Sequence record: PP738783.1
DNA: 64,000 bases
Strand: one strand, 5' to 3'
DNA from: Klebsiella phage vB_KpnM_Tauntaun_ER47
Shown here: in pieces, positions 51,596-51,958 of the stretch
Layout: each line of letters opens with the position of its first letter
Position numbering within the stretch: the first letter of the stretch is position 1
Notes under the pieces: model-generated
The model's input: only the letters and a program-made list of their open reading frames with translations
Told to the model about the DNA's origin: nothing
The model's database searches: none
Made by a program: the position numbers and the translations under genes

Positions 51596-51958
51596 ATGAA
51601 AGCATTTCAAATTTTAGAAGGTTTGCATACGGGTACAATCTATCTGGAAGAAGGTAACGACGTTCGGATCGTAGTATCAAAAACATTAACTATGGATTCT
51701 GTGATCGGTAAAGCTCGCGTTACTCCGTTTGCAAAGCGAGAGATCGAGATCGAATATCAGCCAACTGTTAAAGTGGAAGGTGGACAACATTTAAACGTAA
51801 ACGTGTTGCGCCGCGAAACTCTCCTGGATGCTGTTGAACATCCTGAAAAATATCCGCAGTTGACGATCCGTGTATCTGGTTATGCAGTGCGTTTTAACTC
51901 ACTGACTCCTGAACAGCAACGCGATGTTATTGCCCGTACTTTTACAGAGAGTCTATAA
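51596..51958 (+). CDS. grcA: autonomous glycyl radical cofactor GrcA (YfiD-like)
   Basis: C-terminal 60 aa ([59 protein letters not shown]) almost identical to E. coli GrcA as recalled, including the RVSGY glycyl-radical motif. Confidence 0.85.

Follow-up and report, generated by a model that had tools for sequence, protein, structure and literature searches.

Only two proteins have been validated experimentally as "spare parts" for pyruvate formate-lyase (PFL), namely YfiD (GrcA) of Escherichia coli and Y06I, the product of gene vs.6 of phage T4 (PMC8683613). In the E. coli protein, residues 1-60 are disordered and promote both binding to the cleaved PFL and efficient installation of the radical; the glycine sits in the structured C-terminal half (PMC8683613). 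For Y06I, as the same source relates the work of Wagner et al. 2001 (pmid 11444864), the host PFL-activating enzyme introduces the radical, and the protein then forms a complex with O2-cleaved PFL, with activity being restored. In a comparison published in 2006, vs.6 figured among eleven open reading frames (ORFs) of unknown function kept in all (6/6) T4-like genomes compared, and its Gly_radical domain was noted (PMC1524935). The present study concerns a homologous gene, grcA, of Klebsiella phage vB_KpnM_Tauntaun_ER47. It lies in a stretch of 64,000 nucleotides from sequence record PP738783.1, which is referred to below as the window. An earlier note, written from the sequence alone, had taken the gene for a phage-encoded autonomous glycyl radical cofactor. 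This identification was right, as family, structure and phage-profile matches all agree; what the note missed is that the gene has a textbook counterpart in T4 vs.6. The feature is already known: it is an ordinary T4-family accessory gene in a Klebsiella Slopekvirus and, to judge from the alignments, the Slopekvirus orthologue of vs.6 and of its product Y06I.

The coding region spans 120 residues between the stop codon that ends the upstream gene and a stop of its own, with no PFL barrel fused to it. As a GrcA-like gene it was confirmed to be real, with a match far beyond chance. The protein is recognized by the Pfam family Gly_radical (PF01228; E=4e-18; 66.3 bits, cutoff 22.2), by the NCBIfam GrcA model TIGR04365 (E=5e-44, 149.6 bits), by the solution nuclear magnetic resonance structure of E. 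coli GrcA (PDB 6owr; E=3e-40) and by the phage profile phrog_1209 (E=4e-59), in which residues 1-120 align with positions 1-121 of 121. In the HMMER alignments, residues 18-120 fall on positions 23-126 of TIGR04365 and residues 19-120 on residues 25-127 of 6owr. E. coli PFL is matched as well (PDB 1h16; E=1.4e-27); however, the full PFL model TIGR01255 is covered only at positions 678-744 of 744, at a score of 91.8 bits (cutoff 994). The window protein is neither a PFL, the full enzyme being a barrel of about 760 residues with Cys418/Cys419, nor an NrdD.

The two halves of the protein differ in their closeness to the bacterial family. The radical domain is identical at 61 of 61 positions to the GrcA of Klebsiella sp., Phytobacter and related bacteria, at 60 of 64 to E. 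coli GrcA (94%) and at 50 of 64 to residues 696-759 of E. coli PFL (78%). The near-identical C-terminal peptide of the earlier note corresponds to residues 58-120, that is, 63 residues rather than the estimated 62 or so, among which three differ from E. coli GrcA (K59R, L77E and E81K). The RVSGY motif is present and intact, with residue 95 as the predicted radical glycine. Weak similarity or loss of this motif had been named in the earlier note as grounds for abandoning the assignment; the matches proved strong and the motif is kept. Two further matches to R[VIT][SCA]GY, picked up by a six-frame pattern search of the window (at 61940 on the + strand and 47453 on the - strand), lie in stop-interrupted frames and were discarded as chance occurrences. 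The N-terminal half is divergent, as had been said: taken alone in a blastp search, it finds bacterial GrcAs that are 21-29% identical, with E values between 3e-7 (Morganella) and 1e-3 (E. coli). It appears to be homologous to the N-terminal region of bacterial GrcA and yet to represent a distinct phage type. Because of this phage-type half, the TIGR04365 score stays below the curated equivalog cutoff of 170 bits, a result that speaks against a plain GrcA assignment. The protein is best filed under the phage subfamily of GrcA (Vs.6/Y06I) rather than as a bacterial equivalog in the strict sense.

Comparison with the described systems places the protein closest to T4 Vs.6. The two are identical at 92 of 120 positions over their full length (76.7%, the value found across all 120 residues for T4, T2 and relatives, in which the gene is vs.6), and they share the length, the phage-type N-terminus (MKAYQILEG.H.GTIY...VSKT), the RVSGY domain and a nearby vs.4 (Acb2-like) gene. 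In contrast, the gene order is cd, tRNAs, DUF7338, grcA, vs.4-like gene and, farther on, DNA ligase in the window, and denV, vs.8, vs.7, vs.6, vs.5, vs.4 and regB in T4. Moreover, the C-terminal half of T4 vs.6 consists of near-identical E. coli DNA and has E and K at residues 77 and 81, whereas the window gene follows phage codon preferences and has L and E. E. coli GrcA resembles the window protein in being a stand-alone polypeptide of about 14 kDa, with the 94% identical C-terminal domain, PflA as the presumed activase and O2-cleaved PFL as the presumed target. The phage protein differs from it in being shorter by 7 residues, in having an N-terminal half that is only about 23% identical and in being encoded in a lytic-phage gene cluster, where the regulation of host grcA would presumably not apply. 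The resemblance to the C-terminal domain of PflB (1h16) includes the Gly734 loop RVSGYAVRF; however, lacking the ten-stranded barrel and Cys418/Cys419, the window protein could serve only as a prosthetic replacement and not as an enzyme.

The mode of action that we favor is built on these precedents. In Klebsiella infected under anoxic or micro-oxic conditions, the host radical S-adenosylmethionine enzyme PflA would abstract the pro-S hydrogen of Gly95 in the RVSGYAV loop, generating a stable glycyl radical. When O2 attacks the Gly734 radical of the host PFL, the chain would be cut and the C-terminal 25 residues lost. The phage C-terminal domain, identical to the domain of the host GrcA, could then enter the barrel of the cleaved PFL and supply a new radical glycine, with the N-terminal half helping it dock onto the remaining 696-733 segment. 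Conversion of pyruvate to acetyl-CoA and formate would resume, together with substrate-level ATP formation via Pta-AckA, and the energy supply would be kept up during infection. That the window gene encodes a phage-type GrcA acting as a PFL spare part in the infected host is, in our judgment, quite probable. The role itself, a spare glycyl-radical domain for O2-damaged PFL, had been put forward in the earlier note; according to the published summary it has been shown biochemically for the orthologue Y06I, and it would extend to the window protein by analogy. The same action with the PFL and PflA of Klebsiella, and a benefit to the phage, may be supposed. Two considerations count against this reading: activation and rescue are transferred from work on T4 Y06I and E. 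coli YfiD, and in the literature searched we found no demonstration of a fitness benefit of vs.6 to any phage. The distinct and conserved N-terminal half would also allow for altered binding, and one might imagine a decoy or inhibitor that competes with the host PFL or GrcA for PflA, or that sits in PFL non-productively, redirecting pyruvate flux. We consider such a role highly improbable, as the T4 orthologue, in the account available of that work, restored PFL activity in vitro, and the radical domain matches that of a functional host GrcA without a single substitution, a constraint needless for a mere decoy.

Homologues of grcA are widespread among phages. The 1.3 kb around the window gene are 96-98.6% identical to more than 100 Slopekvirus genomes (Straboviridae) from Klebsiella, Raoultella and Enterobacter. 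A tblastn search found a homologue in 1,587 phage records, and the range (about 1,590 records) extends from Straboviridae to T5-like Demerecviridae, jumbo phages and Aeromonas phages. Many of the orthologues are annotated as GrcA; some are labelled "pyruvate formate-lyase", which is a misnomer, or "hypothetical protein", and the present assignment corrects these frequent database mislabels. The wide distribution of phage GrcAs suggests that upkeep of host fermentation through oxygen fluctuations is a widespread strategy in enteric hosts.

How long the gene has resided in phages is a separate question. The earlier note had taken the very high C-terminal identity as a sign that the gene was recently captured from an enterobacterial host. 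For comparison we used a bacterial panel made up of grcA from 80 species plus E. coli (81 genes, including Klebsiella sp. WOUb02, Enterobacter, Phytobacter and Citrobacter) and a phage sample comprising grcA from 11 annotated phages and 80 IMG/VR loci; statistics on phages were meant to omit ten IMG/VR loci with full or truncated bacterial PFL and one with a bacterial-type GrcA. If the C-terminal half had recently been taken from an enterobacterial grcA and fused to, or kept with, a diverged N-terminus, this would account for a radical domain that matches the Klebsiella-type GrcA at every position, including the lineage-typical L77 and E81; and recent capture does occur in the family, as the T4 gene described below attests. 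The DNA of the window gene speaks against it. The best bacterial match to the 183 nucleotides of the domain is 84% (Pantoea, E. coli), about what two bacterial species show when their domains agree in 95% or more of the residues (median 82.5%). The Klebsiella sp. gene encoding the identical peptide is only 80% identical in DNA, and its proportion of differing synonymous sites (pS) of 0.78 amounts to saturation; over the bacterial genes, pS in the C-terminal domain ranges from 0.53 to 0.78. The G+C content at third codon positions (GC3) is 0.34 in both halves, with no step between them, as compared with 0.64 in Klebsiella and Enterobacter grcA, and it comes close to the general composition of the window (overall G+C content 0.41); this was the comparison of halves proposed in the earlier note. 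In DNA, the C-terminal half comes nearest to that of other phages (KLB3, 93%; Cronobacter phage leE, 87%). Recent capture is largely refuted by these data, and we grant it next to no probability.

The N-terminal half tells of phage ancestry as well, being 88% identical to that of leE and 54-58% identical to those of T4 and JD18, as compared with the 21-29% seen with bacterial GrcAs. Proximity of vs.6 and vs.4 is common to T4, where vs.5 is interposed, and to the Klebsiella Jiaodavirus JD18. In a neighbor-joining tree of 56 representatives built from full-length proteins, phage and bacterial GrcAs are split with 98.7% bootstrap support; one of the 25 "phage" representatives (vL163) is a truncated bacterial PFL fragment, by which the split is slightly contaminated, and it was left out of the DNA-identity table. 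Taken together, the DNA identities, GC3, the type of the N-terminal half, the full-length split and the shared synteny show a gene that has in all likelihood long been resident in the phage lineage and inherited within the Straboviridae, rather than one recently captured. The identity of the C-terminal protein sequence to host GrcA would then stem from strong purifying selection, since the domain must fit both the active site of the host PFL and the host activase. Indeed, the ratio of nonsynonymous to synonymous divergence (dN/dS) is 0.08-0.10 in the N-terminal half, where dS is about 1, and about 0.03 in the C-terminal half: both halves are under purifying selection, and in the C-terminal half it is extreme. 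Some findings weigh against long residence, or at least against the certainty with which it can be stated. Trees built from single halves are unresolved, with bootstrap values of at most 0.11 for the N-terminal half and with phage and bacterial sequences intermixed for the C-terminal half, and our reading of the two halves rests on pairwise identities, synteny and codon statistics, not on tree topology. In addition, the bacterial panel is without a K. pneumoniae grcA, and for the true host the absence of recent transfer is read from GC3 and from related Enterobacteriaceae.

The T4 gene has had a different history. T4 vs.6 is a sharp mosaic, in which hardly any of the 59 N-terminal codons is the same as in E. 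coli grcA, whereas the 61 C-terminal codons (record OZ209023.1) differ from one E. coli strain at 7 of 183 nucleotides (96% identity). The dS of this half relative to the same strain is 0.15, as compared with 0.55 between E. coli and Citrobacter; many other E. coli strains match nucleotides 179-363 at 98.9% identity; and GC3 rises from 0.19 in the N-terminal half to 0.41 in the C-terminal half. All sampled loci of the Tequatrovirus type (T4 and six IMG/VR contigs with T4-like GrcAs) are 94-96% identical to E. coli, a level reached by no other phage group. These data point to a very recent host-to-phage gene conversion of the radical domain, which would have taken place in the T4 lineage and not in that of the window. 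We found no prior description of this DNA mosaic in the open-access literature, although Wagner 2001 or the 2003 review of the T4 genome may mention it. The comparison of T4, which carries host DNA, with the window phage, which carries the same peptide in recoded DNA, illustrates that protein identity alone cannot date a gene transfer. The grcA gene of Klebsiella phage JD18 is intermediate between the two: its GC3 goes from 0.25 in the N-terminal half to 0.59 in the C-terminal half, and the latter is 86-87% identical to grcA of Enterobacteriaceae. This pattern may reflect an older host-derived replacement.

Could the window gene, too, have undergone an exchange, earlier and shorter, that left L77 and E81 in an old phage gene and has since been recoded to phage codon usage? 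Compared with its sister group (leE, RB43-like), the window differs by 3 nucleotides in codon 77 and by 2 in codon 81, as opposed to 0-1 in neighboring codons (window 51824-51838). The residues fit the usual hosts: L/E is found in Slopekvirus and Jiaodavirus (Klebsiella phages) and in the GrcA of Klebsiella and Enterobacter, and E/K in T4, in the RB43-like sister phages of Cronobacter, Citrobacter and E. coli, and in the GrcA of E. coli and Citrobacter. Among near-identical Slopekviruses, furthermore, the C-terminal half diverges by 6.0-6.6%, all of it synonymous, while the flanks diverge by about 1-2%, and the GC3 jump in JD18 would be in keeping with such events. However, PFL has L/E as well, and this state may just be the ancestral one; L/E is also found in Krischviruses of E. 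coli, which means that host matching is not general; and only two sites and few lineages are concerned, with no donor-like DNA tract detected among the 81 bacterial grcA genes. We therefore hold a short-patch exchange in the window gene to be improbable, and treat codons 77 and 81 and the silent divergence of the C-terminal half as weak hints of recurring exchange or host matching. It is conceivable, although we find it doubtful, that phage grcA is a standing mosaic in which the N-terminal docking half is inherited vertically and the radical half is periodically overwritten by, or matched to, host grcA. T4 may then represent the fresh state, JD18 the intermediate one and the Slopekvirus copy the fully recoded one. 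Were this general, grcA would offer a natural record of host history and a rare case of recurrent gene conversion from host to lytic phage that keeps the fit with a host enzyme.

A further suggestion of the earlier note was that the diverged N-terminus might retarget the protein to a phage anaerobic ribonucleotide reductase, NrdD, if one were encoded elsewhere in the genome. The 64-kb window contains neither nrdD nor nrdG, and a tblastn search of it with NrdD found no NrdD-like sequence. Anaerobic ribonucleotide reductase is on record for Slopekvirus and Jiaodavirus (PMC11845039). In Slopekvirus vB_Ko_K41P2, whose GrcA is 100% identical to that of the window, NrdD and NrdG are encoded beside endonuclease VII, about 70 kb from grcA. 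The genus thus possesses the enzyme, as the note had presupposed. An apparent exception, Slopekvirus phT4A, in which a 38-residue NrdG-like fragment by endonuclease VII could be taken for what remains of a lost nrdG, so that grcA would have outlasted the anaerobic ribonucleotide reductase, proved to be an assembly-gap artefact: the genome (NC_055712.1 / KX130727.1; 40460-40570 of the extracted locus) is partial, and it seemed to be without this enzyme because a run of N covers the spot where other Slopekviruses carry nrdD/nrdG and where nrdG is annotated in them.

The N-terminus of the phage protein could, in principle, direct the spare radical domain to O2-cleaved NrdD or make it a substrate of the phage NrdG. 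Beyond the presence of both genes in Slopekviruses, NrdG and PflA are homologous activases, which would favor such a switch, and grcA lies inside an nrdD/nrdG cluster in 6 of 89 phage loci, representing at least three unrelated lineages. The phages with grcA in or beside such a cluster are jumbo Salmonella-type phages of 337-357 kb, a 235-kb phage and the 86-kb Aeromonas phage BUCT695. In none of the T4-like or T5-like phages among the 89 loci is grcA within the cluster, and we read the clustering as co-location of genes used under anoxia; in the jumbo phages, a shared "anaerobic" expression module explains it equally well. The distance of some 70 kb in Slopekvirus does not favor an NrdD target either. 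The radical domain is of the GrcA/PFL type at every residue. NrdD likewise has an O2-sensitive C-terminal radical glycine, in R-x-x-G-Y, but the likeness ends at this pentapeptide: in NrdD the loop is preceded by a zinc ribbon (CxxC...CxxC followed by RRTCGYLG in Slopekvirus) and the activase is NrdG, and the window domain does not align with the C-terminal 500 residues of Slopekvirus NrdD. T4, finally, has NrdD and NrdG too, yet its Y06I worked with PFL and the PFL-activating enzyme, as far as the summarized report goes. Retargeting to NrdD is in our view most unlikely, and PFL remains the favored partner.

The features of the grcA locus, and the tracts compared in T4, E. coli and JD18, are collected in Table 1.

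Table 1. Positions of grcA, its parts and adjacent elements in the window, and of the compared tracts in other records
Feature	Position	Strand	Remarks
grcA, vs.6 orthologue (putative phage-type autonomous glycyl radical cofactor)	51596..51958	+	ATG start, 120 residues plus stop
GrcA N-terminal half, residues 1-59	51596..51772	+	phage-specific type (MKA[YF]QIL.G.H.GTI ... VVSKT)
GrcA C-terminal glycyl-radical domain, residues 60-120	51773..51955	+	
Gly95 codon GGT	51878..51880	+	RVSGY glycine predicted to carry the radical; counterpart of GrcA Gly102 and PFL Gly734 by alignment to 6owr and 1h16
Shine-Dalgarno-like AAGGT	51585..51589	+	7 nt before the grcA ATG; overlaps the upstream stop codon; read from sequence
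DUF7338 protein, 190 residues	51013..51585	+	Pfam PF24027, 1.3e-64; phrog_2143; directly upstream of grcA
T4 vs.4 homologue, 89 residues, Acb2/Tad1 hairpin domain	51958..52227	+	Pfam PF24729, 3.4e-17; phrog_717
Terminator-like hairpin	50984..51001	+	just before the three-gene unit; consensus scan only
Terminator-like hairpin	52233..52258	+	11-bp stem, then T-run; just after the three-gene unit; consensus scan only
T4 vs.6, C-terminal half	locus L082:6179-6363		compared with the E. coli tract below
E. coli grcA, compared tract	locus L083:1504-1686		
Klebsiella phage JD18 grcA	locus L084:1501-1863		

The gene is part of a run of small genes on the + strand, located between the dCMP deaminase gene and two tRNA genes on one side and the DNA ligase gene on the other. 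The DUF7338 gene, grcA and the vs.4-like gene appear to form a three-gene unit between the terminator-like hairpins. Within it, the start codon of the vs.4-like gene overlaps the grcA stop codon (TAATG), and a ribosome-binding site is annotated in phage KLB3 at the place equivalent to the AAGGT upstream of grcA. KLB3 also annotates the counterpart of the DUF7338 protein as transmembrane, and the DUF7338 (phrog_2143) gene is kept at its position upstream of grcA in Slopekvirus and Pseudotevenvirus. The downstream protein is 50% identical to T4 vs.4 and 57% identical to its JD18 neighbor in blastp alignments. Members of the Acb2/Tad1 family are cyclic-nucleotide sponges that counter defence by the cyclic-oligonucleotide-based antiphage signalling system (CBASS) and by Thoeris; in the relatives examined, the vs.4-like gene is annotated as a "hypothetical protein".

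Other elements of the region were located by correspondence of position with the KLB3 annotation. The tRNA genes (Ile, Gln) would lie at about 49959-50117, some 1.5 kb upstream of grcA, and a gene for an HNH homing endonuclease at about 53726-54244, some 1.8 kb downstream. Between grcA and the latter, a hypervariable patch (window 53086-53451) shows 74 differences over 366 nucleotides relative to one Slopekvirus, in surroundings that are 98-99% identical between Slopekviruses; it covers several small ORFs together with the beginning of a 146-residue ORF at 53289.

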